Assembly (NCBI RefSeq): GCF_039710355.1
Contig: NZ_JBDKWZ010000026.1
Location: 1-64,000 of the forward strand
Length of the DNA stretch: 64,000 nt
Source: Rapidithrix thailandica
Lineage (GTDB): Bacteria > Bacteroidota > Bacteroidia > Cytophagales > Flammeovirgaceae
Reading direction: 5' to 3'
Shown here: positions 3,886 through 59,564 of the stretch, piece after piece
Layout: the number at the start of each line of letters is the position of its first letter
Numbering within the stretch: position 1 is the stretch's first letter
Notes under the pieces: model-generated
Told to the model about the DNA's origin: nothing
The model's input: only the letters and a program-made list of their open reading frames with translations
The model's database searches: none
Translations under genes and position numbers: made by a program

Positions 3886-4530
3886 GTGAAGGTAATGGAA
3901 TTTTTAAAATATGCTTTAGAGTCAGTAAACCTGCCTTATACCTTTCTGATGATACTGATCTCGCTGTATTGGCTGGCTACATTTATTGGCATACTCGACC
4001 TCAGCAGTTTTGATTTGGATGCTGATGCAGATGTAGACATTGATGCAGATACAGACGTAGGTGTTTCCGGTGGAAGTGCTCTGAGTGGTGTACTACATTT
4101 TTTCCACATCGGTGAAATACCCGTTATGATCATCATCAGCTTCTTTGCCTTGTTTGCCTGGGTCGGGTCGGTCCTTGCCAACTATTACCTTGGCAATACT
4201 TCCTGGGGAATCGCAGCACTTTTAAGCATTCCGCTTTGTATCGGGAGTTTGTTGATCACCAAAGTGGCCTGTATGCCTTTTGTAAAAGTCTTTCAACACA
4301 TCAACAAGCCCGATGATATAGAGGTGGTAGGAAAGGTATGTACTTTACGCAGTCAGGCCGATGGGGAAAATATGGGCTTGGCAGAAGTAAAACTGGATGG
4401 AATCACCCAAACAGTATATGTAATTACTCACGATGGTTTGCCGCTTTCCAAAGGCGATCAGGCACTGGTGCTTCTGCGCAAAGAAAGCAAAAACTGCTAT
4501 GTGGTAGAGGCGTATCACGCTTCAATTTGA
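3886..4530 (+). CDS. yqiJ: YqiJ/NfeD-like inner-membrane protein (DUF1449-like), partner of flotillin
   Basis: 214-aa ORF. N-terminal TM helices with an acidic DADADVDIDADTDV loop, C-terminal soluble OB-like segment. Sits 55 bp upstream of a flotillin gene, as in the E. coli yqiJK arrangement. Confidence 0.6.
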   Translation: MKVMEFLKYALESVNLPYTFLMILISLYWLATFIGILDLSSFDLDADADVDIDADTDVGVSGGSALSGVLHFFHIGEIPVMIIISFFALFAWVGSVLANYYLGNTSWGIAALLSIPLCIGSLLITKVACMPFVKVFQHINKPDDIEVVGKVCTLRSQADGENMGLAEVKLDGITQTVYVITHDGLPLSKGDQALVLLRKESKNCYVVEAYHASI

Positions 4531-4585
4531 ATGAAACATTTTACTTATATCAAACTGAATTACAAATTTTTAATTTCTAAAACGT

Positions 4586-6643
4586 ATGCTTGGAGAAACT
4601 CTAATTATTATTTTGATTGTCGCTGCAGTCATTGTCTTTGGTACGATTGCCCTAGTCGCCAGTTTTTACAAAAAGATCCCACAGGGAAAAGTCATTGTCC
4701 GTACAGGGGTTGGCGGTTCTAAAGTCTTTTTTAACGGAGGGATGGTTGTACCAATATTGCACAGAATGGAAGTGATGGATATTTCCGTGCAGAATTTTGA
4801 AATTAACAGGGAAGGCAAAAACGGATTGATTTGTAAAGATCACCTCCGTGCAGATATACGGGTCGCATTCTTTGTGAGGGTCAACCGCGACAATGTGATG
4901 GATGTGGCTCAAGCTATCGGTTGCGAACGGGCTTCGGATACCAGTCTGTTGATTAATCTGTTTGAAGCAAAGTTTTCAGAAGCGCTAAAAACCGTGGGTA
5001 AACAATTCGACTTCATCGATCTATACAACTCCAGAGATGAGTTGAACAACATGGTCAGAAAAGCCATCGGTACCGATCTGAACGGATACATTTTGGAAGA
5101 CTGTGCCATTGATCACTTAGAGCAAACACCTCCTTCTTTCCTGGATCCCGACAATATTCTGGATTCCGAAGGTATCAAAAAGATTACCGAAAAAACGGCT
5201 GAACAAAAAATATTGGCCAACAAAATCCGGAACGATGAGGTGAAAACCATCAAAAAGCAGGATGTGGAAAGAAAGGAAGCCGTATTGGAATTGGAAAAAC
5301 AACAATCGGAAGCCGAAGAGAAGCAAAAAAGGGAAATTGCCAACATTCGCTCAAGAGAAAATTCTGCGGCCTCCATGGTAGAACAAGAGGAAAGGTTGAA
5401 AGCTGAGAATGCCCGTATCCGTGTAGATGAAGAGCTGGAAATTGCCAACCAAAATAAAGAACGGCAGGTAATCATTGCGCAAAAGAACAAAGAGAAAGTA
5501 GATGCGGTAGAGTCCGAGCGCCTGGAAAAAGAAAGAATGCTGGAAGAAACCGAAAGAGAAAAAATCGTTTCGCTGGCACAAATTGCCAAAGAAAAAGCGC
5601 TCGAAGAGGAAAAACGCAATATTCAGGATGTCATTAAAGAGCGGATCATTCTTGAAAAATCCGTAGTGGAAGAGCAAGAGAAAATCAAAGATACTCAAGC
5701 CTTTGCAGAAGCAGAGCGTCTCAAAAAGGTATCCATCACCAAGGCAGAACAAGAAGCCGAAGAAGAGTTACTGAAAGAAGTAAAATCTGCGGAAGCGCAA
5801 AGGCAAGCGGCTGAAATCAAAGCGAAACAAAAACGTATTGATGCAGATGCGGACTTCATGATTGCCGAAAAGCAAGCGGAAGCGACCAAAGTACTGGCCA
5901 AAGCGAAAGTGGAAGACGAAGCTGCCCAAGGTCTGGCCGAAGCCAAAGTGATCGAATCCAAAGCGCAAGCGCAGGAATTGCAGGCCACGGCCGATGCGAA
6001 AACCATCGAAGAAACCGCCATTGCAGAAGCAAAAGGAATGGAAGCCAAAGCTCAGGCCATCGAAAAACAAGGAATGGCCGAAGCCAAAGTGGCACAAGAG
6101 AAAGCCTTGGTGGAAGCACAAAGAATCAAAGCCGAAGCAGAAGCCAACAAATTGCTGGATGAAGCCGGTAGAGATTTGGAAGAGTTCCGCTTGAAATTGC
6201 AAATGGAAAAAGACTTGGAAATGGCAAAAGTCAACGTACAGAAAGACATTGCCTTGGCACAAGCCCAAATCATGAGTGAAGGCTTGAAAGCCGCCAACAT
6301 CGATATTGTGGGTGGAGATAGCATGTTCTTTGAGAAAATCATTCAATCCATTACCAGCAGCAAGTCCGTAGACCGGTTTGTCAATCACAGCCAGACGGTT
6401 CAGGAAATCAAACATAACTTGCTTGATTCTGAGAATGGCAACATGCTTGAAAATGTAAAAAACATGATTGCAAAATTTGGCTTGACCTCCGAAGATATTC
6501 GCAACCTGAGTGTATCCGCTTTGTTACTGAAGCTCTCCAGCTATACCAATGACAGCAAGGAGAAGAATATGTTGGAAAATCTGATGGAACACGCTAAAAA
6601 TACGGGCCTTGCCGATATACCGGTGAAGACCTTGGGTATCTAA
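4586..6643 (+). CDS. yqiK: flotillin family SPFH/band-7 protein (YqiK-like)
   Basis: 685-aa ORF. N-terminal TM helix, then an SPFH core (KIPQGKVIVRTGVGGSKVFFNGGMVVPILHRMEVMDISVQNFEINREG...), then a ~350-aa E/A/K/Q-rich coiled-coil flotillin tail and a C-terminal globular part. Confidence 0.85.
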   Translation: MLGETLIIILIVAAVIVFGTIALVASFYKKIPQGKVIVRTGVGGSKVFFNGGMVVPILHRMEVMDISVQNFEINREGKNGLICKDHLRADIRVAFFVRVNRDNVMDVAQAIGCERASDTSLLINLFEAKFSEALKTVGKQFDFIDLYNSRDELNNMVRKAIGTDLNGYILEDCAIDHLEQTPPSFLDPDNILDSEGIKKITEKTAEQKILANKIRNDEVKTIKKQDVERKEAVLELEKQQSEAEEKQKREIANIRSRENSAASMVEQEERLKAENARIRVDEELEIANQNKERQVIIAQKNKEKVDAVESERLEKERMLEETEREKIVSLAQIAKEKALEEEKRNIQDVIKERIILEKSVVEEQEKIKDTQAFAEAERLKKVSITKAEQEAEEELLKEVKSAEAQRQAAEIKAKQKRIDADADFMIAEKQAEATKVLAKAKVEDEAAQGLAEAKVIESKAQAQELQATADAKTIEETAIAEAKGMEAKAQAIEKQGMAEAKVAQEKALVEAQRIKAEAEANKLLDEAGRDLEEFRLKLQMEKDLEMAKVNVQKDIALAQAQIMSEGLKAANIDIVGGDSMFFEKIIQSITSSKSVDRFVNHSQTVQEIKHNLLDSENGNMLENVKNMIAKFGLTSEDIRNLSVSALLLKLSSYTNDSKEKNMLENLMEHAKNTGLADIPVKTLGI

Positions 6644-6652
6644 CCATCAGTA

Positions 6653-6725
6653 ACAGTTGTGCATTCAAACCGGCCCTTCGTAAACCTCCGGATGCCGGTT
6701 TGGATGCCGGCACAACTGTCTTTTT
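6653..6725 (+). terminator. long imperfect hairpin plus T-tract between the flotillin and giant ATPase genes (possible partial terminator or attenuator)
   Basis: acagttgtgc (6653-6662) pairs with gcacaactgt (6710-6719). The internal ccggc...gccgg region can also pair. Followed by cttttt. Confidence 0.4.
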
Positions 6726-6791
6726 AACCTGTTAGAACACTTCTTACAGTACTTAAAATTTGATAATGGTACTTATATTTATCATCTGCTA

Positions 6792-9700
6792 ATGGAAGAA
6801 AATTCAACACCACAAGCTTCGGAAGCGCCACAAATTGATGCGGGTACCTATGAGATCCTGAGGCAGAGGCTGAAGCAAAGTGGCAATACACTACAGGAAA
6901 AATTAAATCAACTCAACCAGGTCCGGAAAGATACCTTCGGAAATATCCCCACTACTTTACTTAAAAACGAGCGGATCAGTACGGAAAACAACTGTATCCC
7001 CCGTGATATGATTGCCGTTGGAGACCATTTCCTTTTTGGGTACAATGTGCATATCGGTTTAAAATCCGAAGTGGAAGTCTCCGATGTTTTCAGTGTGTAT
7101 CAATTCCGTTCGGAAGATCATAGTTTCCATCTAAAAGAGCTGTCACTATTATCTGACGAGCGTTTTTCCGAAGATTTCCGCCAACTCTACAAGTACTATA
7201 AACATACAACCTTTGCAAAATTTGTGGTTATCGGGCCACACCTTTATCTCAAGTTTCAGACTTCCAAAAACACCAACAGTGTAAAAGCTTTCAAGTTTTT
7301 AATGGAAGACGGAGAGCTACAGTACATCGACAACCGTAGCGACCATGAAATAAAATACCCGGAGCAACACGAACTGGAATGGAAAAGGGCCAGCCGTGAC
7401 CACCACCGGGAAGGGGATCACCCTCATATTTCCATTCTGGACAAGGTGTTTGTGGAAACTATTGGTGGTGACCTCACCATCAAAATTGAAGACAACACCG
7501 AGTCAGGCGAGGGAATTTATCAGGAAGAGGTCAGCCATCACGAGCAAACACTGGACGATGCGGAAATTTACTTTGCCGATTTGGGTAACTTGATCTTGCT
7601 GAAGATCAAGCCGTACATGGAAGAACATTTTCGCTTTTTCGTGTTTAACCACAAACTGGGCGAAGTACACCGGATCGACAGCATTAAAGACACTTGCGTA
7701 CTGCTACCCGATGAGCAGGGGATTATCTTTTCCCAAGGCTATTACTTGCAAACCGGAGAATTAAAGGTATATGACGAAAGCCTTACCGGAATGCGCTTTG
7801 AGAAAAAAATCATTTCTCCCAATGGAGAAGACTTTCTCTTTGTCTATTACAACCCGGCAGTAGGCGACTATGTTTTGCTCTCTTACAACAGGATAGAACA
7901 AGCTGTGGAAAGTCCGGTGACTTGTAGCGGTTTTTCCTTCTTCCGAAATGGAGAGTTGATATACTTCAGAGCTGACCACGAGCCTAAAAAGCACCATGCG
8001 CTTCAGCTTTGGCAAACTCCGTATGTACACCCTGACTACGAAGTCCCTACCCAAAACGAAAGCTATCTGTACAAGGTAGGAAACAAAGATATTGTAAGGG
8101 CGATGGCAGAATGTAACGAGTTGATGAAACTCTTACAAAAAGAAGATGCTTACGCCACCCTTTACCAGGATGTAGCCAAAAAATCCAGCGAGATCGGTGA
8201 CAGTTATTACTGGATCAGTCATGAGGAAGCCTATCAGATCGATACGGTTTTGACGGAAATCCACCAGAATGCCGTAGTGGCTATTGAGGAATTCGAAAAG
8301 GTAAGGAGAATAAAAAAGGCGACCCTCGAAGCCGTAGGGCAAATATCGCAGCAGGCAAAGGAGCTGATCGATAAGGTCAGAAGAAGACAATACAAGGAAA
8401 TAGATGATTTTGTGCAAACTCTTGCCAGCATTCGCAAACTTCGGGGAGACACGATCTCTTTAAAAGAACTGCGCTATGCGGATATTCCGGCCATTGAAGC
8501 TTTAGAGCAACAACTGGCCGAAAAAAATGAAGATGTTTCTCAAAAATGCGTACTCTTCCTTTTACAGGAAGACTCCTTACTTCCTTATCAGCAAAAAGTA
8601 GCCGGACAAAACGACAAGATCGAAGAGGTTAGTAAAGTCGCTGAAGCGGATGCCATTCAGGGGGAAAATGACCAGATCGGCCAGGAACTGGAAATGTTAA
8701 TCGAGATTGTCAGTAATCTTAAAATCGAAGATGCGACACAGACTACCGAAATCATCGATAGCATTTCCGACATTTATGCCTCACTCAACCAGGTAAAAGC
8801 CAAGTTAAAACAGGTGCGCAAAAACCTGTTGGGCACCGAAGCCAAAGCCGAGTTTGCGGCACAACTCCGCCTGATTGGTCAGTCTGTAGTCAACTACCTG
8901 GATGTAAGTGACTCTCCTCAGCGCTGTGAGGAATACATGACCCGGCTAATGGTACAATTGGAGGAATTGGAAGGTAAGTTTGCGGATTTCGATGAATTCA
9001 TCCCGCAACTGGCAGACAAAAGAGACGAAGTTTACCAAGCTTTTGAAAGTAGAAAACTCAACCTTGTTGAACAGCGAAACAAAAAAGCAACTTCGCTGCA
9101 AACAGCTGCCGAACGAATCTTAAAAAGCATTGAACACAAGGTAAAATCCTTTAAAGAGGTAAGCGAAATCAATGCCTACTTTGCCGCTGACATCATGGTG
9201 CACAAAGTGCAGGAAATGATTACGCAACTGCAATCGCTGGAGGATAACGTGAAGGCAGATGACTTGCAAAGTAAGTTGAATGCCACCAAGGAAGAAGCTG
9301 TCAGACAATTAAAAGACCGGAAGGATTTATTTGCCGAAGGTGAAAATGTCATCACACTGGGCAAGCACCGCTTCTCCGTGAATGTACAAGCCTTGGATGT
9401 GAGTCTGGTGCAACGTGACGGTGATTTGTATTACCACCTCTCCGGGACCAACTTCTTCGAAAAAGCGGATTTGGTTGACCATCAATTTCAGCCGGCCATC
9501 CTCACCCAGGAGATTGTTTCCGAAAACCGGGAGGTGTACCGGGGGGAATACTTGGCTTATCAATATTTGAAACAAATCAAGCAAGAGCAAACCTTGGACG
9601 CACATGCAGGCTTACCTGTAAAAGAGCTTGCGGAAAAAATCCAGGCATTTATGGCTCCTCGTTACCAAGAAGGTTATCAGAAAGGGGTTCATGATGCGGA

Positions 9701-11708
9701 TGCCGCCATTCTGCTTCAAAAGTTGATTGACTTGGAAAGCCGGATTGCCCTGTTGCGATTTACACCCGTAGCCCGCGCTTGTGCGGCTTTATGGTGGCAG
9801 GTATTTGCCGAAAACACGGAACAAGCCAACTCTAAAGAACTGTTGTTACACCGGATTCGTGGACAAGCAGTCATCAGAAAGCTTTTCCCTAATAGTGAAG
9901 ACCAGCAAGAGCTAATTGGCGATCTGGCTACAGAAATAGAGGCTTTTGTGGAACGTTCCGGATTGTTCTCACCTACTATTGTGGAAGATGCCGCTACCTA
10001 CCTGAGCCTTGAATTAGCGGAAAAAGACACCTTTACGATCAGTAGGGAAGCAGCCATCATCTATGAAGGATTTACCAATGACTTGCAAGCCAAAAATGCA
10101 AAAGAGGCCTATGTTCAATCGGTAAATGCGCTGAAAAACACGCCTGAAGATGCCTTTAGCCTGATCGTTGATTGGCTAAAAGCTTGGCTGCAAATGCAAC
10201 AAACAGAAGGCAAAGAACATCTGGCAAACAGCCTTGAAGAAGCGGCGGTACTGCTGTTCACCAATACCTTCAACAACCTAAATGTTTTGAATGTAGAAGT
10301 AGAACAGATGGTTGAAGGCTTGAGTGGCGAACATACTTCTATCGAAAAAGGGAATTACACACTCAATTATCACACTTTCATCGATAAACTTAAGCATTTT
10401 GAAACACATGTAGTCCCTGACTTCCTGAAATTTCAGTCGCTGAAGAAGTCGATGGTAGAAGATTTCCGCAAACAAATCAGGTTAGATGAGTTTAAGCCCA
10501 GAGTGTTGAGTTCTTTTGTAAGAAACCAATTGGTAGACCAGGTGTATTTACCCCTTATCGGAGATAACCTGGCCAAGCAAATCGGGGTGGTAGGCCATAA
10601 CAAGCGTACGGACTTGATGGGGATGCTCTTGTTAATTTCCCCTCCCGGATACGGGAAAACAACCCTGATGGAATACATTGCCAACCGGGTAGGATTGATT
10701 TTCATGAAAATCAACGGACCGGCTATCGGACACCAGGTCACTTCTCTCGACCCCGATGATGCCGGCAACGCCAGTGCCAGAGAAGAATTGAAAAAGCTCA
10801 ACCTGGCCTTTGAAATGGGTGACAATGTCATGGTGTACCTGGATGATATTCAGCACTGTAACCCGGAGTTTTTACAAAAATTCATTTCCCTTTGTGACGG
10901 TCAGCGTAAGATCGAAGGGGTATACAAAGGCGTGCCTCAAACCTATGATCTGAGAGGAAAAAGGGTATGTGTGGTAATGGCAGGTAACCCGTATACGGAA
11001 AGTGGAGAAAAATTCAGAATCCCGGATATGTTGGCCAACCGTGCAGATACATACAACCTGGGAGATATCATTGGAGATACGGAAGAACAATTCAGACTGA
11101 GCTATATCGAAAATGCATTGACTTCCAATCCGGTATTAACCAAACTGGCCGTAAGAAGTCGTAAAGATATCCATACCGTGGTTCGCTATGCGGAAACCGG
11201 AAACCGGGAAGGATTGGACTTCGAAGCCAACATGGAAGCGGATGAGCTCAACGAATATGTAGGGGTACTTTCTAAATTGCTCAAAATTCGCGATGCCATT
11301 TTGAAGGTTAACCTGAAGTATATTGAGTCGGCCGCACAAGCGGACGAATACCGTACCGAGCCTCCATTTAAATTACAGGGTTCGTACCGTAACATGAACA
11401 AGCTGGCCGAAAAAGTGATGCCGGTGATGAACGATAGGGAGTTACAAACCTTATTGCTCTCTCATTATGAAAACGAATCGCAAACGCTCACTACCGGTGC
11501 AGAAGCCAATATGCTGATCTTTAAACATATGATGAGTTGGTTGGATGAAACTTCTACCATGCGTTGGGAGGAGATCAAACAAGTATTTATGAAAAACCAA
11601 AAGCAAAAAGGCTATGGTAAAAACAATCAATTAGCCGCTTTATTGGAACAACTGGAAGGTTTTGCTGAAAACCTGAAAGGCATTAAAGAAGCCATTGAAA
11701 AGCGGTGA
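6792..11708 (+). CDS. giant (1638-aa) protein with a C-terminal AAA+ P-loop ATPase module (MoxR/AAA_5-like) and a central coiled-coil region; function unknown
   Basis: Uninterrupted 4.9-kb ORF. Walker A-like LLLISPPGYGKTTLMEYIANR (~aa 1275), Walker B-like NVMVYLDDIQHCNPEFLQKF, and sensor-like VCVVMAGNPYTESGEKFRIPDMLANRADT. Residues ~600-850 are heptad-rich. Same strand as and 148 bp downstream of yqiK. Confidence 0.7.
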   Translation: MEENSTPQASEAPQIDAGTYEILRQRLKQSGNTLQEKLNQLNQVRKDTFGNIPTTLLKNERISTENNCIPRDMIAVGDHFLFGYNVHIGLKSEVEVSDVFSVYQFRSEDHSFHLKELSLLSDERFSEDFRQLYKYYKHTTFAKFVVIGPHLYLKFQTSKNTNSVKAFKFLMEDGELQYIDNRSDHEIKYPEQHELEWKRASRDHHREGDHPHISILDKVFVETIGGDLTIKIEDNTESGEGIYQEEVSHHEQTLDDAEIYFADLGNLILLKIKPYMEEHFRFFVFNHKLGEVHRIDSIKDTCVLLPDEQGIIFSQGYYLQTGELKVYDESLTGMRFEKKIISPNGEDFLFVYYNPAVGDYVLLSYNRIEQAVESPVTCSGFSFFRNGELIYFRADHEPKKHHALQLWQTPYVHPDYEVPTQNESYLYKVGNKDIVRAMAECNELMKLLQKEDAYATLYQDVAKKSSEIGDSYYWISHEEAYQIDTVLTEIHQNAVVAIEEFEKVRRIKKATLEAVGQISQQAKELIDKVRRRQYKEIDDFVQTLASIRKLRGDTISLKELRYADIPAIEALEQQLAEKNEDVSQKCVLFLLQEDSLLPYQQKVAGQNDKIEEVSKVAEADAIQGENDQIGQELEMLIEIVSNLKIEDATQTTEIIDSISDIYASLNQVKAKLKQVRKNLLGTEAKAEFAAQLRLIGQSVVNYLDVSDSPQRCEEYMTRLMVQLEELEGKFADFDEFIPQLADKRDEVYQAFESRKLNLVEQRNKKATSLQTAAERILKSIEHKVKSFKEVSEINAYFAADIMVHKVQEMITQLQSLEDNVKADDLQSKLNATKEEAVRQLKDRKDLFAEGENVITLGKHRFSVNVQALDVSLVQRDGDLYYHLSGTNFFEKADLVDHQFQPAILTQEIVSENREVYRGEYLAYQYLKQIKQEQTLDAHAGLPVKELAEKIQAFMAPRYQEGYQKGVHDADAAILLQKLIDLESRIALLRFTPVARACAALWWQVFAENTEQANSKELLLHRIRGQAVIRKLFPNSEDQQELIGDLATEIEAFVERSGLFSPTIVEDAATYLSLELAEKDTFTISREAAIIYEGFTNDLQAKNAKEAYVQSVNALKNTPEDAFSLIVDWLKAWLQMQQTEGKEHLANSLEEAAVLLFTNTFNNLNVLNVEVEQMVEGLSGEHTSIEKGNYTLNYHTFIDKLKHFETHVVPDFLKFQSLKKSMVEDFRKQIRLDEFKPRVLSSFVRNQLVDQVYLPLIGDNLAKQIGVVGHNKRTDLMGMLLLISPPGYGKTTLMEYIANRVGLIFMKINGPAIGHQVTSLDPDDAGNASAREELKKLNLAFEMGDNVMVYLDDIQHCNPEFLQKFISLCDGQRKIEGVYKGVPQTYDLRGKRVCVVMAGNPYTESGEKFRIPDMLANRADTYNLGDIIGDTEEQFRLSYIENALTSNPVLTKLAVRSRKDIHTVVRYAETGNREGLDFEANMEADELNEYVGVLSKLLKIRDAILKVNLKYIESAAQADEYRTEPPFKLQGSYRNMNKLAEKVMPVMNDRELQTLLLSHYENESQTLTTGAEANMLIFKHMMSWLDETSTMRWEEIKQVFMKNQKQKGYGKNNQLAALLEQLEGFAENLKGIKEAIEKR

Positions 11709-11733: not shown

Positions 11734-11776
11734 AATCAGGCTATTGACGAAATTTTGTCGGTAGCCTGATTTTTTA
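11734..11776 (+). terminator. rho-independent terminator after the giant ATPase gene
   Basis: aatcaggcta ...loop... tagcctgatt followed by tttttt. Confidence 0.6.
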
Positions 11777-11794: not shown

Positions 11795-12376
11795 TATGCG
11801 ATTCAAAATAAAACCACAGTAGGCACATAGGACACAGTAGAAATGAAATAACGAACTCCTTAAAAACTATGTAACCTTATGTTCCTATGCGATTCAAAAA
11901 CAAAACCACAGTAGGTACATAGGGCACAGTAGAAATGAAATAACGAACTCCTTAAAAACTATATGATCTTATGTTCCTATGGGGTTCAAAAACAAAACCA
12001 CAGTAGGCACATAGGGCACAATAGAAATGAAATAACGAACTCCTTAAAAACTATGTAACCTTATGTTCCTATGCGATTCAAAAACAAAACCACAGTAGGT
12101 ACATAGGGCACAGTAGAAATGAAATGACAAGCTCCTAATAACTTATGTGATCTTATGTTCCTATGGGGTTCAAAAACAAAACCACAGTAGGCACATAGGG
12201 CACAATAGAAATGAAATAACGAACTCCTTAAAAACTATGTGATCTTATGTTCCTATGCGATTCAAAAATAAAACCACAGTAGGTACATAGAACACAATAG
12301 AAATAAAATAACGAACTCCTTAAAAACTATGTGATCTTATGTTCCTATGCGATTCAAAAACAAAACCACAGTAGGA
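11795..12376. repeat. tandem array of a 92-bp unit, ~6.3 copies, with two alternating subtypes
   Basis: Units start at 11795, 11886, 11978, 12070, 12162, 12254 and 12346 (the last one partial). Units are >90% identical. Odd and even units differ at diagnostic positions (cgattc vs gggttc; ggcacatagg vs ggtacatagg; gtaacc vs gtgatc). Confidence 0.9.
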
Positions 12377-12400: not shown

Positions 12401-13285
12401 TTACTTACCCTTCTTCGCCTTAATCATTGCTTCAAGTTTGTCCCACATATCTTTGGGAACAAGATGCTCCAAAAAGTTAAACTCCCCGGCACCGTTTAGC
12501 CACTCACCACCGTCAATGGTAATCACCTCCCCGTTGATGTAAGCTGAAAAGTCCGACACCAAATAAGCCGCCAGGTTGGCTAATTCCTGATGATCTCCCA
12601 CCCGGTTAAGCGGCACCTTCTGAGCCAGATCAAATTTATCTTTCAAATTGCCCGGTAAGAGCCTGTCCCAGGCTCCTTTGGTCGGGAAAGGTCCCGGAGC
12701 TATGGCATTACTTCTGATACCGTACTTTGCCCATTCCACTGCCAGACTTTTGGTCATGGCCAATACGCCGGCTTTTGCCGTAGCACTGGGAACCACATAA
12801 CCCGAACCCGTCCAGGCGTAGGTGGTGACAATGTTCAAAATCACCGTGTTTTTCTGCTGAGTATTGATCCAATGTTTTCCAAAAGCCAACGTACAGTTTT
12901 TACTTCCTTTCAGTACGATATCAATAATGGTATCAAATGCGTTGGCCGATAGGCGTTCGGTAGGAGAGATAAAATTTCCCGCAGCATTGTTCAACAGCAC
13001 GTCTACTTTACCGAAGGTGTTTAAAACCTCCTGAAGCATGGCCTCCACCTGATCATAATGACGCACATCACATTGTACAGCCAAGCAATTTCCACCTGTT
13101 TCCTTTTCCAATTCCGTGGCGGTATTTTGCAACTTTTCCAAATTACGGGAAGTGATGGCTACCTTAGCCCCTAATTCGAGAAAATATTTTGTCATGGATT
13201 TTCCCAAGCCACTTCCTCCCCCAGTCACAACAATTACCTTATTTTCAAGCGCATCTTCGCGAAGCATTTTTGAAGAGTAGTTCAT
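12401..13285 (-). CDS. SDR family oxidoreductase (2,4-dienoyl-CoA reductase-like)
   Basis: VIVVTGGGSGLGKSM Rossmann motif. NNAAG, and a YxxxK-type catalytic region (SATAKAGVLAMTKSLAVEWAKYGIRSNAIAPGP). Confidence 0.8.
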   Translation of the reverse strand: MNYSSKMLREDALENKVIVVTGGGSGLGKSMTKYFLELGAKVAITSRNLEKLQNTATELEKETGGNCLAVQCDVRHYDQVEAMLQEVLNTFGKVDVLLNNAAGNFISPTERLSANAFDTIIDIVLKGSKNCTLAFGKHWINTQQKNTVILNIVTTYAWTGSGYVVPSATAKAGVLAMTKSLAVEWAKYGIRSNAIAPGPFPTKGAWDRLLPGNLKDKFDLAQKVPLNRVGDHQELANLAAYLVSDFSAYINGEVITIDGGEWLNGAGEFNFLEHLVPKDMWDKLEAMIKAKKGK

Positions 13286-15712: not shown

Positions 15713-15760
15713 CCGATATGTCGGACCACCGATATGTCGGACCACCGAAGTGTCGGACCA
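15713..15760. promoter_or_regulatory. three tandem 16-bp direct repeats (ccgatatgtcggacca x2, ccgaagtgtcggacca) about 90 bp upstream of the GNAT gene start
   Basis: Exact or near-exact head-to-tail repeats read directly from the sequence. Positioned in the promoter region of the minus-strand GNAT gene. Confidence 0.5.
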
Positions 15761-16916: not shown

Positions 16917-18269
16917 ATGCAACCATCAAAAAATGGAATCAGGCGACTGGTAGTAGCGCTTGTATTTATTACTTTATTACTTCCCCTGCATGTCTTTGCT
17001 AATGGAAAAGGGTTCTTTGCTATTCAATTTACCTGGGACAATGGCTCTTACAACCCGGAATACAAAGTTGGAGTAAATTTTACAAAGGGGAGTATTATCA
17101 GCAAAAACTTTAAAGAAATCACTGCCAAAAATAATATTTTGATCGCAGAATTTTCGCCCGGAGATTATGAGATTGAATCATTGGAATTTACCGGAGGAGA
17201 CTTGTATGGCCAAAAACTCACTTTAGACTTTAAACGAAAAATTACCATAGAGGATGGAAAAATTACCAACGGAGGATTGGTGTTTATTGGCAAAGGAAGC
17301 CAAAAGAACAAAAAGCGCCATGAGATTTACTTTTTGACGCTTAACAACCAAGCAGACCTTCAATGGTACCTGCAAAATAAGTATGTCAGTCCTAATGTAT
17401 CCAGGACTTCCCCCGTTCAAACCGCTTGGGAATTTACCAAACAAGAAACCATAGACAGGGTGATTGCCTTTTTCGAAAAGAGTTATGTAGAACGGGAAAC
17501 TCAACATCCTCAAAAAGGCGTAAAATATCTCTATGGCATGTTGGGTATGTTGATCAAGCTGCAAAAAGATCAAAACGGAACCGTTGTGGGAAGCCAGCGG
17601 CTACATACCGGAACTTACCGACAGGTTCAATCCTCTCAATCCTATCAGGGAAAAAAGATTGTGGATTTAGGCCAGGGTCACTATTTATACGGTCCCGATG
17701 AAGATCTTCAACCGGTTAAGTATCCGGAAGGCCTCACAACGGACTCTCAATTCAAATTCATTGGAAATAATAAATTTTTAGTTGTGGACGGCAATTTCAA
17801 TATTTACGTTTCGGAGGGAAAACCCTTTCAATGGAAAAAACAGGATGATTTCCACAGGAAATATGATCCTTATAACCGCCCTCATATCAGTTTTGGTGCA
17901 AACCATATCTATATTTTTACCTATCATATTGAAGATGACTGGAGTTTGTTAAGAGCTCCTTATGACAAGGTTCAATTTGAAGCTGTCGAAATCAGTCCGG
18001 AAATCAAGAAAGTTTCCGAAGTGCAAGAAACCCAAAACAAACTGGTCATCGGGCCAAGAACCACCAACTTTGTAAAGAAGGGCGCATTTATACATGTACA
18101 AGATTTAAATTCAGGCAATTGGGAATTAGTGCGGGCTCCCCGGGGAGACTGTGGCGGCTTGTACGTGGATAGTAAAAATGATAACCGTTTTCAGGCTGTT
18201 TGTGGAAAGCTTGTTTATATCAGTGAAGATGCCGGGCATACATGGGTGTTGATCAAAGATAAAAAGTAA
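16917..18269 (+). CDS. secreted hypothetical protein
   Basis: 450 aa. Signal peptide (RRLVVALVFITLLLPLHVFANG). No recognised motifs. Confidence 0.5.
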   Translation: MQPSKNGIRRLVVALVFITLLLPLHVFANGKGFFAIQFTWDNGSYNPEYKVGVNFTKGSIISKNFKEITAKNNILIAEFSPGDYEIESLEFTGGDLYGQKLTLDFKRKITIEDGKITNGGLVFIGKGSQKNKKRHEIYFLTLNNQADLQWYLQNKYVSPNVSRTSPVQTAWEFTKQETIDRVIAFFEKSYVERETQHPQKGVKYLYGMLGMLIKLQKDQNGTVVGSQRLHTGTYRQVQSSQSYQGKKIVDLGQGHYLYGPDEDLQPVKYPEGLTTDSQFKFIGNNKFLVVDGNFNIYVSEGKPFQWKKQDDFHRKYDPYNRPHISFGANHIYIFTYHIEDDWSLLRAPYDKVQFEAVEISPEIKKVSEVQETQNKLVIGPRTTNFVKKGAFIHVQDLNSGNWELVRAPRGDCGGLYVDSKNDNRFQAVCGKLVYISEDAGHTWVLIKDKK

Positions 18270-19815: not shown

Positions 19816-20451
19816 TTAAGTAGACGTGATCATTGTTCTAAAGGTCAGGTTCACTCTTGGTGTTTTTACTTTTTTGGTTTTGGGCAGACTGTGCAACCAG
19901 TGGGTTTGCGTACTCCCTTTCATTTCCAACAGACTGCCTCTTTCCAGTATTACCGATACGGTCGTTTTATCTTGTTTGTGCTTGAAGGCAAACTTCCGGT
20001 CTGCTCCCAAACTCAACGAAGCAATGCTTGTATTTTTGCCCAATTCCTTTTCATCGTCACTATGCCAGGCCATTCCCTCCTCGCCATTGTGGTACAGGTT
20101 TAGTAAACAAGAATTGTATGGTGTTCCGGTATAGGATTCGACCAAAGCTTTTAACTCCAGCAATTCTTTTGTCCAAGGCAATGCTTGTTTGGTGGTGTTG
20201 GAATAAGTATAGGCATAGTTACGGTCGCCATACCAGGCGGCCTTTCGTTTGGTAATAATATGTTTGCCAAAGATCACCGCTTCATCGTTTTTCCAGGCAA
20301 TGGTATCCAACAAGCGTTCAAAATAATGTTGGGCCTTATCAACCGGTAGAATTTTTCCAAAGTAGAGTGCGGTACCGTCCTTTGGCAGTAAGTTGTTGGC
20401 AGGCCCGGTATGAAATAAGCTCGTTTTTATCGGTTGTTTTTTGTTTTCCAT
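19816..20451 (-). CDS. alkB: alpha-ketoglutarate-dependent dioxygenase AlkB (alkylated DNA/RNA repair)
   Basis: AlkB-like 2OG-Fe(II) fold with HSDDE...H motif (MAWHSDDEKELGKNTSIASLSLGADRKFAFKHK...HWLHSLP). Start placed at internal MENKKQ. The longer ORF (to 20484) overlaps the upstream gene. Confidence 0.8.
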   Translation of the reverse strand: MENKKQPIKTSLFHTGPANNLLPKDGTALYFGKILPVDKAQHYFERLLDTIAWKNDEAVIFGKHIITKRKAAWYGDRNYAYTYSNTTKQALPWTKELLELKALVESYTGTPYNSCLLNLYHNGEEGMAWHSDDEKELGKNTSIASLSLGADRKFAFKHKQDKTTVSVILERGSLLEMKGSTQTHWLHSLPKTKKVKTPRVNLTFRTMITST

Positions 20452-20675
20452 TGTTTGTATTTTTCTGACATACAATGCCCACAAGGGCGGTATCCTTCCT
20501 CAAGTGCTTCTGCTTCCGAGGCAAAAAACACACGGGTTTCCCTGCGCATTCTTTTGCCCGATTTACAGTGAAGACTCCCATAAATTTTTAACTTTTGATT
20601 TCCCCCATAGCAAAGCTCCTGATGCTTGATTTTCATCAATAAATCGAAAGAGTGAATTTCCTTGTGATAAATCAT
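20427..20675 (-). CDS. stand-alone Ada N-terminal Zn-binding (methylphosphotriester-sensor) domain protein
   Basis: 82 aa with four Cys spaced as in Ada_Zn_binding (ELCYGG...LHCKSG...RVFFASEAEALEEGYRPCGHCM). Confidence 0.65.
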   Translation of the reverse strand: MIYHKEIHSFDLLMKIKHQELCYGGNQKLKIYGSLHCKSGKRMRRETRVFFASEAEALEEGYRPCGHCMSEKYKQWKTKNNR

Positions 20676-20678
20676 AAC

Positions 20679-21392
20679 TCAACTCAATGCATCGTGAAAA
20701 ATAATTCCCAAGGTGTACCTTTCACCCTGATGGATTTCGCTTACCCCATGCTTCACCGTAACCTTATAATACCCTCTGTTCCCTTTATGGGGTCGAAAGT
20801 TGGTGGTGAATATCAAAACATCCCCTTTTTGAGGACGTAATACCTTAGCTTGGGACTGGGCCATATAGTTTTGTTGTGTCAACACAAATTCTCCTCCGGT
20901 ATAGTCGTCTTCCGGCTCACTTAAAAACAAAACAAGCTGAAAGGGAAAATAAATTTCTCCGTACAAATCTTGGTGAAGCGTGTTATATCCTCCTTCCCCG
21001 TATTTCAAAATCAGAGGAGTCGGTTTTAATTGATTCTTTTGATGACACGCTTCTTGCAAAGCTTGTAAAGTACCGGGATACACCCGGTTTATGTTTAACT
21101 TCTTCATCCACTGATTGGCAAGAGGCACCAACCGGGGATAGACTTCCTCCCGGAGGGTTTGAACCAAAGGCGGCAGAGGGTAATCAAAATATTTGTATTC
21201 TCCCAAACCAAAGCGATAACGCTCCATGGCCACCGTTTTGCGATAAATCCCTTGTTTGTCATACAACTGTCGAAGCTCCTCACATTGGATATCTGACAGC
21301 ATGCGGGAAATCGTTGCATATCCTTTTTGATGAATACGCGAAGTAGTGGCTTGCCAATCAATGTTGACAAGCTGTGCCCTTAAGTTTTCCAT
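20679..21392 (-). CDS. 2OG-Fe(II) oxygenase superfamily protein (non-AlkB)
   Basis: 237 aa. HxD...H iron-binding triad candidates (TLHQDLYGE ... KHGVSEIHQGERYTLGIIFH). Jelly-roll-like C-terminal half. Confidence 0.6.
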   Translation of the reverse strand: MENLRAQLVNIDWQATTSRIHQKGYATISRMLSDIQCEELRQLYDKQGIYRKTVAMERYRFGLGEYKYFDYPLPPLVQTLREEVYPRLVPLANQWMKKLNINRVYPGTLQALQEACHQKNQLKPTPLILKYGEGGYNTLHQDLYGEIYFPFQLVLFLSEPEDDYTGGEFVLTQQNYMAQSQAKVLRPQKGDVLIFTTNFRPHKGNRGYYKVTVKHGVSEIHQGERYTLGIIFHDALS

Positions 21393-21407
21393 GGTTTTCG
21401 TTTCGAA

Positions 21408-22250
21408 TTATGAATTGGTTTTCGCAGCTTCCCATCCGATGATGGCCGTTTTACGAGTATTGCCCCACATATAGCCCCCAATTGCACCACTGGACTGGAT
21501 CACTCTGTGACAGGGAATTAAAAAAGCAACCGGGTTACTTCCTATGGCCGTGCCCACGGCTCTGGAAGCTTTGGGATTTTGTATCTCTTCTGCAATTTTG
21601 CCATAGGTAGACAATTGTCCCATAGGAATTTTCAAAAGGGATTCCCATACTTTTAACTGAAAGGCCGTTCCTTTTAAGTGTAATTTGATTTGGTCAATTT
21701 TATTCCAGTCATGTGAAAAGATATACAAGGCATTTTGCTGAATGAGGTCCACTTTCTGTTTGAACCGGGCATTGGGAAAGTGCTTTTGCAAATCGGCTAG
21801 CGATTGAGACTCACTGTTTGTAAAAGCCATATGGCAGATACCTTTGGCCGTAGAAGCTACGAGGATATCGCCAAACGGACTTTCGGCAAAGCTGTAATGA
21901 ATAGAAAGGCTTTCTCCTCCGTTCTTAAATTCACCGGGCGACATCCCTTCTATTTTCACAAATAAATCATGCAACCTGCCCGTACCGGAAAGTCCCGTTT
22001 CATATGCGGCCTCCATCAAGCTTGTTTGCTTCTCTTTCAGAATTTGCTTGGCATATTTCACACTGATAAACTGCAAAAATTTTTTAGGACTGACTCCTGC
22101 CCAATCGGTAAACATCCGTTGAAAATGAAAAGGGCTCAGGTGCACTTTGTCAGCCACTTCTTCCAGGTTGGGTTGCGTTTTAAAATTCGCCTGAATGTAT
22201 TCAATGGCTTGCGCAATCCGCTTATAATTGATATGTTCGTTCTGTTCCAT
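21408..22250 (-). CDS. ada: AraC-type HTH fused to methylated-DNA-protein-cysteine methyltransferase (Ada/AdaB-like regulator-repair protein)
   Basis: N-terminal AraC HTH (LEEVADKVHLSPFHFQRMFTDWAGVSPKKF). C-terminal MGMT domain with active-site PCHRV (VAFLIPCHRVIQSSGAIGGY). Confidence 0.8.
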   Translation of the reverse strand: MEQNEHINYKRIAQAIEYIQANFKTQPNLEEVADKVHLSPFHFQRMFTDWAGVSPKKFLQFISVKYAKQILKEKQTSLMEAAYETGLSGTGRLHDLFVKIEGMSPGEFKNGGESLSIHYSFAESPFGDILVASTAKGICHMAFTNSESQSLADLQKHFPNARFKQKVDLIQQNALYIFSHDWNKIDQIKLHLKGTAFQLKVWESLLKIPMGQLSTYGKIAEEIQNPKASRAVGTAIGSNPVAFLIPCHRVIQSSGAIGGYMWGNTRKTAIIGWEAAKTNS

Positions 22251-59188: not shown

Positions 59189-59260
59189 TAATTGTTTAAA
59201 GGTTTGTGAAAAATATTAAAACCACAACGATACCCCTTTAATCAATTCATGTCAATAGGC

Positions 59261-59396
59261 TTTTCACTTATTTTCAGATATTTTCATTTATTTTCAGATA
59301 GCTTTTCACTTAGCGAGCGCTCGAAAAAAAAAATTTTGCGAACGCTCGCTAAGTGAAAATAAGTGAAAAAGTCCGTTAAGTGAAAATATCTGAAAA
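59261..59396. repeat. ~135-bp imperfect palindrome built from ttttca(c/g)(t/a)ta iteron-like 10-mers around an A10T4 centre
   Basis: Left arm ttttcacttattttcagata / ttttcatttattttcagata / gcttttcacttagcgagcgctcg. Centre aaaaaaaaaattttg. Right arm cgaacgctcgctaagtgaaaa..gtgaaaatatctgaaaa is the reverse complement of left-arm modules, with a 20/21 match on the innermost stem. Confidence 0.7.
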
Positions 59397-59564
59397 ACAC
59401 CTGGAAAAACTGCCACAAATCACGTTTTGGGGAGAGTGTTTACAGAAGCGGTACTCCTCTGGCTGCGGAACAGTTTTATAGGATATTTCCTATACAGAAC
59501 ACCTATTCACCAAAGTAACAAAAGACCTTTCTTTGAGGCTTATAAAGCCAATCGCCTGTTGGTA

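Follow-up and report, generated by a model that had tools for sequence, protein, structure and literature searches.

A tandem array of palindromic repeat units between convergent genes of Rapidithrix thailandica and the element family of its unit

Bacterial interspersed mosaic elements of the BIME-2 class are made of tandemly reiterated inverted pairs with alternating linkers, pneumococcal BOX elements carry a variable number of tandem boxB modules, and the enterobacterial repetitive intergenic consensus (ERIC) or intergenic repeat unit (IRU) sequences, the Correia/NEMIS elements and the cyanobacterial Nezha elements are palindromic mosaic repeats. Tandemly reiterated clusters of repetitive extragenic palindromes (REPs) have also been described (PMC3733652), and Bacteroidetes carry subclasses of REP-associated tyrosine transposases (RAYTs) with long 'double foot' or atypical REPs (PMC6006769). 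Here we analyse an array of 92-bp units in Rapidithrix thailandica, a member of the Cytophagales (contig NZ_JBDKWZ010000026.1 of assembly GCF_039710355.1, positions 1 to 64,000 of the forward strand). This whole stretch of 64,000 nt is called the window, and loci from elsewhere are cited by handles such as L007. The array lies, as a first-pass annotation made from the letters alone had reported, between the convergent 3' ends of a large ATPase gene (+ strand) and of a short-chain dehydrogenase/reductase (SDR) gene (- strand). In our reading it is probably a BIME/BOX-like cluster that arose when a non-coding, palindromic repeat element was amplified in place, comparable to REP/BIME sequences or to miniature inverted-repeat transposable elements (MITEs).

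The 92-bp array and the family of its unit

Tandem Repeats Finder detected one strong tandem array in the window (period 92, 6.3 copies, 91% matches, 1% indels, score 964), in agreement with the head-to-tail repeat of 6.3 copies and more than 90% identity described in the first-pass annotation, and a separate repeat search of the window gave a start-to-start distance between copies of 92 nt all through. The unit boundaries, set by the anchor TATG[CG]G[AG]TTC, are collected in Table 1. In the list of open reading frames (ORFs) of the window, none of at least 60 aa crosses the region. The units differ from each other by 2-13 substitutions, with 19 variable columns among the six full ones, and the most diverged is unit 4, with six private changes within its interior. 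As for the strict alternation of two unit subtypes proposed earlier, what stands is a 184-bp higher-order period that is imperfect. In the register of the hairpins the units follow the pattern A B A B A' B', with a mean of 7.0 mismatches at lag 2 versus 9.0 at lag 1, but just one of the variable columns (column 31, the C/T of GGCAC/GGTAC) alternates over all six units, columns 5 and 7 (CGATTC/GGGTTC) doing so in units 2-6 only and columns 80 and 82 (GTAACC/GTGATC) in units 1-4 only.

In each unit, a 29-nt left arm is followed by 26 nt of A/T-rich interior, then by the right arm, also 29 nt long, and by 8 nt of A-rich linker. The left arm is in turn composed of three sub-repeats of 8-9 nt, CACAnTAGG, and a sub-period of 9 nt inside the unit was also detected by Tandem Repeats Finder. 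The right arm (CTATGTGATCTTATGTTCCTATGCGATTC) is a degenerate inverted copy of the left one, degenerate in all of the units. The short inverted motif cctatg...catagg that had been noticed before is present, though it is merely the core of these two 29-nt inverted arms. Both arms would pair in an imperfect stem of about 28 bp, where the variable n of each CACAnTAGG appears as a bulge or mismatch, with an interruption about every 9 bp. Pairing is predicted either within the unit, leaving a loop of 26 nt (-21.2 kcal/mol on the - strand versus -17.2 on the + strand), or across the linker between a right arm and the next left arm, leaving a loop of 7 nt (-23.2 versus -14.9 kcal/mol). The stems are AT-rich and contain mismatches. 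Compared with their shuffled versions, single units fold more stably, with z values from -2.2 to -4.0 on the - strand and from -2.0 to -3.6 on the + strand. A U-rich run (GGUUUUGUUUUUGAA) follows each hairpin on the - strand only, which is the strand of the SDR gene. No compensatory changes were found among the window units at the variable positions.

A 21-mer of the left arm (AAAACCACAGTAGGYACATAG), taken from where the unit is most conserved, matched 12 loci in a scan of one genome per species. Eleven of them belong to genera or metagenome-assembled genomes of the Prolixibacteraceae (Draconibacterium, Tangfeifania, Sunxiuqinia, Mariniphaga and Maribellus), and the twelfth is labelled only 'Bacteroidetes bacterium'. 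These foreign genomes have the 21-mer as the 5' arm of a hairpin that lies between genes, measures about 60 nt and is formed by AACCACAGTAGGCACATAGgACACAATAG, a short loop and CTTATGTGcCCTATGTGCCTATGTGGTT, and the left arm of the window is nearly identical to hairpin arms of Prolixibacteraceae, Paludibacter and other Bacteroidia. An alignment of 17 hairpins taken from other genomes only served to build a covariance model, R1, with which the window was searched with filters off. The element can also be described by the pattern CCACANTAGGNACATAG. R1 matched each of the six units over its whole length on the + strand, with scores of 53.4 to 33.4 bits and E-values from 2.4e-12 to 1.2e-06, the loop of the model being replaced in each case by about 26 inserted bases, and no match better than E about 3 was obtained in the rest of the 64 kb outside the array. 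Because the model matches all six units, the window unit belongs to this hairpin family, its loop being enlarged and its stem weakened.

A closer look at the Prolixibacteraceae loci shows the arm in the majority of the gaps between genes (4 or 5 per locus) of a conserved PfkB / Lar_N / GFO-IDH-MocA / (GxxExxY) / pdxB-like / gnd gene cluster. In several genera it takes part there either in hairpins, with the order left arm-loop-right arm, or in pairs with the order right arm-linker-left arm. The element is also found between unrelated genes in L001, L004, L017 and L020. The upstream gene often takes its stop codon from the TAG of the left arm. In six genomes the pdxB-like gene has ...KPQ* (AAA CCA CAG TAG) as its end, and further overlaps with stop codons occur in L029, L030 and L034, as would be expected of an element inserting at gene ends. 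The length of the interior goes from 4 nt in the canonical hairpins to 26 nt in the window, 27 nt in Paludibacter and about 100-130 nt in Sunxiuqinia dokdonensis. In the latter, contig00027 (L005:7100-8000 and L012:1-540) contains around a GxxExxY gene a loose cluster of at least five left-arm/right-arm elements, whose interiors have this length and whose linker, of about 55 nt, is conserved, and part of this interior (ATGAGAAATAAGTTTCTTTAATAAG) resembles that of the window unit (ATGAAATAACGAACTCCTTAAAAA).

Of the 19 predicted pairs of the foreign hairpins nearly all are invariant, with one double change and a covariation term of -0.02. Since the paired positions are near-invariant without compensatory changes, it is the sequence rather than the mere fold that is conserved. 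Judged on these alignments, such conservation of the arms points to recognition by a protein or to a recent spread, and less well to an RNA selected only for its fold.

In metagenome contigs, a 21-mer from the interior of the window unit (AATAACGAACTCCTTAAAAAC) remained without match. Viral contigs gave no arm pairs, and a solo 17-mer match among them (L013, with no other trace of the family) is probably due to chance, while a distant BLAST search of a plasmid collection with three array units gave no match. At gathering thresholds, Rfam returned no matches in the window or in L007, L009 and L002, and a permissive Rfam search of the array produced only sub-threshold chance matches to miRNA (eukaryotic hairpin models) and snoRNA families. 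The element is also absent from the supplementary REP tables of PMC3733652 and PMC6006769. Altogether, the family appears as a sequence-conserved and palindromic one, widespread in Bacteroidia and catalogued neither in Rfam nor in these two REP surveys.

Tandem arrays of the element are not exclusive to the window. Metagenome contigs were scanned for pairs of left arms at a distance of 60-90 nt, which gave 11 contigs, and Tandem Repeats Finder detected arrays in ten of them (Table 1). Of these and the window array, the latter, with its 6.3 copies, is the largest. Given these ten contigs, tandem amplification of the element is a recurrent phenomenon. The unit is no oddity confined to this locus, but belongs to a palindromic element family present in many Bacteroidota intergenic regions and in other tandem arrays. 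It thus matches a repetitive element, an outcome that the first-pass annotation itself had named as contrary to its reading. The suggestion in that annotation of a satellite-like expansion survives in the sense of a local tandem amplification.

Origin and possible role of the array

We envisage that a single element was located at the start between the converging ATPase and SDR genes, and that it could have multiplied via slipped replication or unequal recombination between direct copies. One round of amplification would have duplicated a 184-bp dimer, leaving the imperfect A/B pattern. The sequence may have been constrained via protein recognition, as REPs are by RAYT transposases and MITE ends by their transposase, or it may have spread recently. 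Either strand would fold into a series of long imperfect hairpins, within the unit or between a right arm and the next left arm, and the likeliest effect of the array would be on the formation or protection of the 3' end of the SDR transcript, together with insulation between the convergent genes. This role is proposed because of the U-rich tail on the - strand and because the array is the sole structured sequence downstream of the SDR stop codon, from which it is separated by 24 nt. A function in SDR 3' ends or in transcript separation is weakly supported, given that a terminator scan finds nothing inside the array, and the array may equally be neutral selfish DNA.

Several observations weigh against the proposed origin and role. 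In addition to the lack of sites within the array in the terminator scan, where loops are of 26 nt and stems AT-rich and mismatched, folding energies across 87 arm pairs from all loci show no consistent strand preference. Outside the array, the 64 kb of host DNA analysed contain no further copy of the element, so that any dispersal within Rapidithrix would be hypothetical, and all named carriers of the family belong to the class Bacteroidia, whereas the host of the window is one of the Cytophagales, class Cytophagia. Moreover, no RAYT-like ORF with HUH/Y motifs was found among the six-frame ORFs of 310 kb of loci (RAYTs being usually single-copy), and filled and empty orthologous sites are too diverged to define a target-site duplication.

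The conservation of the arms at the sequence level, without covariation, would also be compatible with an array of reiterated binding sites for a sequence-specific DNA-binding protein, either nucleoid-associated, partition-like or regulatory, in the manner of sopC-type centromeres or iterons. The composition of each arm, with three sub-repeats of 8-9 nt, is a layout typical of multimeric protein binding, and the A-rich linkers occur at regular intervals. Neighbourhood scans, however, saw no partition, replication or dedicated regulator genes beside the array, the plasmid search was negative, and the right arms of the window are degenerate in every unit. Moreover, most occurrences of the element are solitary hairpins, dispersed between unrelated genes, and it overlaps stop codons, a mobile or selfish behaviour rather than that of a locus-specific array of sites, and we regard this explanation as improbable.

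The tandem small-RNA units suggested in the first-pass annotation, each of them giving a hairpin RNA of about 90 nt as in the multi-copy NsiR1 or Qrr-type loci, fare worse. Stable folding relative to shuffled sequences and the U-rich tail after each hairpin of the - strand are what such genes could show, but there is no Rfam family at threshold, the best weak matches being chance ones to eukaryotic miRNA models, and no promoter-like signal was found within the array on either strand. The lack of compensatory changes among the units and in the family, as well as the members that overlap stop codons and sit inside operons, are further arguments against RNA genes, which makes this possibility a very slim one.

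Taking the array as an amplified cluster of a repeat element has some practical consequences. It should not be annotated as a CRISPR or small-RNA locus, and it is predicted to be a marker of variable copy number. Little is at stake for this locus alone, where an odd-looking array finds an explanation as a cluster of repeat elements. The broader value would lie in a family that occupies operon gaps, gives stop codons to upstream genes, brackets GxxExxY and four-helix-bundle genes and forms arrays. The discovery of a cognate enzyme would widen the view of REP/RAYT or MITE systems by a phylum in which elements of this type have been little described.

Locus history and arm-bracketed small genes

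The closest sequenced relative is Chondrinema litorale, with an ATPase 87% identical to that of the window. The cluster formed by the genes of a YqiJ_N protein, a 685-aa protein and the ATPase is conserved in that species. There, a plain terminator and then other genes come after the ATPase gene, with no SDR gene. R1 found no match in the 25-kb locus of C. litorale nor in the 17-kb locus of a relative with 68% identity. From the absence of array, SDR gene and R1 match in the C. litorale locus it follows that the array is an insertion specific to the lineage, placed where synteny breaks. In the window, the ATPase gene has its own ordinary intrinsic terminator (Table 1), outside the repeat family, which is the sole terminator-like site that the scan found between 11000 and 13500.

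Both the SDR and the ATPase match R. thailandica proteins at 100% identity. The next-best matches of the SDR are many SDRs of Flavobacterium, with about 87% identity, though the host is one of the Cytophagales. These matches, together with the end of synteny with the nearest relative at the array, suggest a horizontal acquisition of the right-hand flank with the SDR gene. A joint transfer of array and SDR gene was considered and rejected, since the Flavobacterium homologue (87%) has an ordinary terminator, a different neighbourhood and no such element.

The same break of synteny, which falls exactly at the array, could also be expected if the copy number or the array itself were an artefact of short-read assembly, or the contig a chimera joined at a repeat. 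The host is recorded as a draft contig of 69.9 kb, and the best foreign SDR matches come from another group, Flavobacterium. Yet the substitutions among the units follow a structured pattern, which is not what a collapsed or looped assembly yields, the array junction shows no shift in base composition, and similar arrays exist in independent assemblies. All this makes an artefact highly unlikely.

Table 1. Coordinates of the array, its units and flanking genes in the window, and related arrays and arm-bracketed genes at other loci
Feature	Position	Strand	Description	Evidence
Whole array	11795..12375	+	six full 92-bp units (one of them 91 bp) and a 31-nt partial seventh	Tandem Repeats Finder, unit table
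Unit 1	11795..11885	+	91 nt, linker short by one A; left arm 11812-11840, interior 11841-11866, right arm 11867-11895	R1 match 11807-11898, E 4.6e-08
Unit 2	11886..11977	+	left arm 11904-11932, right arm 11959-11987	R1 match 11899-11991, E 1.8e-10
Unit 3	11978..12069	+	left arm 11996-12024 (AACCACAGTAGGCACATAGGGCACAATAG), right arm 12051-12079	R1 match 11992-12082, E 1.2e-06
Unit 4	12070..12161	+	left arm 12088-12116, right arm 12143-12171	R1 match 12083-12175, E 2.4e-12
Unit 5	12162..12253	+	left arm 12180-12208, interior 12209-12234, right arm 12235-12263, linker 12264-12271	R1 match 12176-12266, E 1.6e-07
Unit 6	12254..12345	+	left arm 12272-12300, right arm 12327-12355	R1 match 12267-12359, E 8.7e-12
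Partial unit 7	12346..12376	+	right-arm end, linker and first left-arm sub-repeat (CCACAGTAGG)	sequence, unit table
DUF3686/DUF7902/AAA 'DNA repair ATPase' gene	6792..11708	+	1638 aa, upstream flank	domain search
Terminator of the ATPase gene	11734..11771	+	ordinary intrinsic terminator, 17-pair stem then TTTTATTT	terminator scan
SDR oxidoreductase gene	12401..13285	-	downstream flank, convergent with the ATPase gene	domain search
Array in L022			period 115 nt, 5.0 copies, plus a 221-nt double period, as in the window	Tandem Repeats Finder
Array in L024			period 115 nt, 4.0 copies	Tandem Repeats Finder
Array in L018			period 107 nt, 2.8 copies	Tandem Repeats Finder
Array in L016			period 112 nt, 2.9 copies	Tandem Repeats Finder
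Array in L015			period 107 nt, 2.6 copies	Tandem Repeats Finder
Three arrays in L019			periods 97, 77 and 73 nt; 2.5, 2.3 and 2.1 copies	Tandem Repeats Finder
Array in L021			period 102 nt, 2.3 copies	Tandem Repeats Finder
Array in L014			period 95 nt, 2.0 copies	Tandem Repeats Finder
Arrays in L017 and L023			period 103 nt, 1.8 copies	Tandem Repeats Finder
Arm-bracketed GxxExxY or four-helix-bundle/23S_rRNA_IVP genes	L007:3039-3513; L034:2468-2947; L029:2448-2996; L022:1978-2526; L035:466-993			

In several of the foreign loci, arms of this kind enclose small genes. A GxxExxY gene (PF13366, of the PD-(D/E)XK type) lies inside arms of 30 nt and 77% complementarity in L034 (2468-2497 and 2918-2947, 420 nt apart), of 21 nt and 95% in L007 and of 35 nt and 80% in L029. 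A four-helix-bundle gene of L022 is enclosed by 34-nt arms, 97% complementary and built of the 9-nt sub-repeat GTTTGAANN, and a 23S_rRNA_IVP (PF05635) gene of L035 by TAGGCGAAGGCAC.../...GTGCCTTCGTCTA. Moreover, the GxxExxY gene occupies three different intergenic positions of one conserved operon across Bacteroidia genomes. The intervening sequence (IVS) of the Coxiella 23S rRNA, with its ORF inside a stem, is presented as a selfish element in a published account (PMC4990558). With these data in mind, the units could be regarded as ORF-less derivatives of hairpin-bracketed small-gene cassettes, similar to the 23S rRNA intervening sequences, with the arms as cassette ends or RNA-processing stems and the array as an amplified empty cassette. 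But the GxxExxY cases come all from one gene cluster, which means few events, and in L030 and L035 the gene has complete hairpins on either side instead of being enclosed by a single one. The window units have no ORF, no GxxExxY gene was found in the window nor near the metagenome arrays, and hairpins without such genes occur in many places (L001, L004, L017, L020 and the arrays). We consider this origin of the array unlikely and keep the amplification of a palindromic repeat element as our preferred explanation.

A wider version of the same idea, for which we would give rather long odds, is that the CACAnTAGG-arm hairpins and their sibling elements with sub-repeat arms are the ends of undescribed selfish cassettes of Bacteroidota, a counterpart in mRNA operons of the intervening sequences of rRNA. 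GxxExxY or four-helix-bundle ORFs would sit inside a long stem between operon genes, and ORF-less copies would spread, give stop codons to host genes and amplify into arrays. In such a case, the near-identity of left arms between Cytophagia and Bacteroidia would reflect a trans-acting protein that recognises the sequence or a horizontal spread. The literature on GxxExxY and PDDEXK_3 offered almost nothing relevant.

Some related observations deserve a place here. The bracketing arms are made of tandem sub-repeats of 8-9 nt, either CACAnTAGG, GTTTGAANN or TAGGCnnAGGCA. Among the loci with the PfkB / Lar_N / GFO-IDH / pdxB-like / gnd cluster (L029, L030-L032, L033-L034 and L035-L037) the position of the GxxExxY gene differs, and one lineage of the cluster also carries an inserted 23S_rRNA_IVP/four-helix-bundle gene. 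The GxxExxY gene of Paludibacter (L030) is flanked on either side by a direct copy of the same block, about 170 nt long and composed of a left arm, 27 nt, a right arm, 62 nt and another right arm. At equivalent sites there are also palindromes of other sub-repeats. One made of GTCATTGAT in four copies is found between the pdxB-like gene and gnd of S. dokdonensis (L012:1675-1750), and an intergenic palindrome of ATTTAC(C/T) repeats in L001:4230-4330. Hairpins with sub-repeat arms may be a general feature of these Bacteroidota genomes, much like the short tandemly repeated repetitive (STRR) sequences of cyanobacteria.

Regarding the rest of the window, the stretch 3895-11708 encodes the YqiJ_N-like membrane protein, the 685-aa protein without Pfam hit and the 1638-aa DUF3686/DUF7902/AAA ATPase, a three-gene cluster that is conserved in C. 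litorale and in one metagenome relative. None of the three proteins matched a PADLOC defence model, nor did the rest of the seven proteins tried, which included other unannotated proteins of the window. Alkylation-repair genes occupy 19816-22250 on the - strand, encoding an AlkB-like 2OG-Fe(II) oxygenase, an Oxygenase-NA protein (PF09859) and an Ada-like fusion of AraC-HTH and O6-methylguanine methyltransferase. Two more short tandem repeats occur, one at 15713-15760 with three copies of a partly palindromic 16-nt unit (CCGATATGTCGGACCA) and another at 17236-17277 with two copies of a 21-nt unit (GAAAAATTACCACAGAGGATG). Finally, an intergenic region of 377 nt contains at 59260-59410 direct 10-nt repeats (TTTTCACTTA, 3.6 copies) and three inverted copies (TAAGTGAAAA) that flank a 26-nt palindrome (59303-59359, 92% complementary), a cluster of sites that by its letters looks like an operator or an iteron-like region.

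Comparison with known repeat systems

Regular spacing of the repeats and partial dyad symmetry give the array a superficial likeness to CRISPR, from which it differs, as the first-pass annotation had correctly argued, by the lack of unique spacers, the entire 92-bp period being repeated at 91%. In a CRISPR, direct repeats of 24-48 nt alternate with unique spacers, as a rule near cas genes. No cas genes or domains were detected among the 30 window proteins scanned. Two other systems were compared by eye and rejected. In the hairpin alignment, the outer ends, (A)AAACCACA and TGTGGTTCAAA, do not fit the RYYYAAC / GTTRRRY ends of integron attC sites, and the foreign hairpins have as neighbours conserved housekeeping genes in fixed order, unlike the cassette ORFs of attC sites. 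A reading of the arms as CRP-type sites (TGTGA-N6-TCACA) was discarded on spacing. As intrinsic terminators, the hairpins have the U-rich tail of the - strand, but their loops of 26 or 7 nt and their AT-rich mismatched stems do not correspond to that class, which calls for a G+C-rich stem, a loop of 3-8 nt and a U tract right behind the stem.

The intervening sequences of 23S rRNA have in common with the family the long inverted stems bracketing small ORFs of the same families (23S_rRNA_IVP, and here also GxxExxY), with the difference that our elements are found between protein-coding genes and not in rRNA, and that the window units are devoid of ORFs. The MIRU-VNTR loci of mycobacteria (mycobacterial interspersed repetitive units, variable-number tandem repeats) are similar in their intergenic units of 50-100 bp, in tandem at some loci, and the elements related to ours share with them the overlap with upstream stop codons. 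MIRUs are not palindromic, unlike the element described here. The cyanobacterial STRR sequences would resemble the family in having intergenic hairpin arms built of short tandem sub-repeats. They are heptamers, whereas the sub-repeats of our element are of 8-9 nt, with another sequence and in another phylum.

A likeness to MITEs is given by the inverted arms of about 28 nt around a non-coding interior of 4 to about 130 nt, and by the many copies in Bacteroidia loci. An autonomous insertion sequence (IS) with the same ends was not identified, and the sole gene between matching arms is the small GxxExxY, which is no known transposase. Our element is intergenic, foldable and modular, with internal tandem reiteration, and would share these features with MITE, BOX, ERIC, Correia and Nezha elements.

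The REP and BIME sequences, with REPINs and the 'double foot' long REPs of RAYT subclass 2.4 among them, remain the nearest comparison, with some differences. The arms of the element, of 29 nt and three sub-repeats of 8-9 nt each, are not palindromes in themselves, and its imperfect stem of about 28 bp makes it longer than the classical REPs of 20-40 nt. In REPs, a GT[AG]G or CGTC tetranucleotide marks the hairpin foot. A GTAG is conserved in the left arm (CCACAGTAGG), but 7 nt inside the stem and not at its foot, and it is ATAG in many copies. No RAYT gene was found or linked in the 310 kb of loci, and high-copy dispersal is seen in Bacteroidia but neither in the 64-kb window nor in the 42 kb from two related Cytophagales loci. 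On the other hand, the element is a non-coding unit that forms stem-loops, extragenic and palindromic, present at many intergenic sites near gene 3' ends, and conserved in sequence rather than covarying. It occurs single, as inverted pairs and as tandemly reiterated pairs, and in the latter, as in BIMEs, orientation alternates and linkers recur. The window has six successive rounds of left arm, 26 nt, right arm and 8 nt, and the same kind of arrangement is found in L022, L024, L018, L019 and L021.

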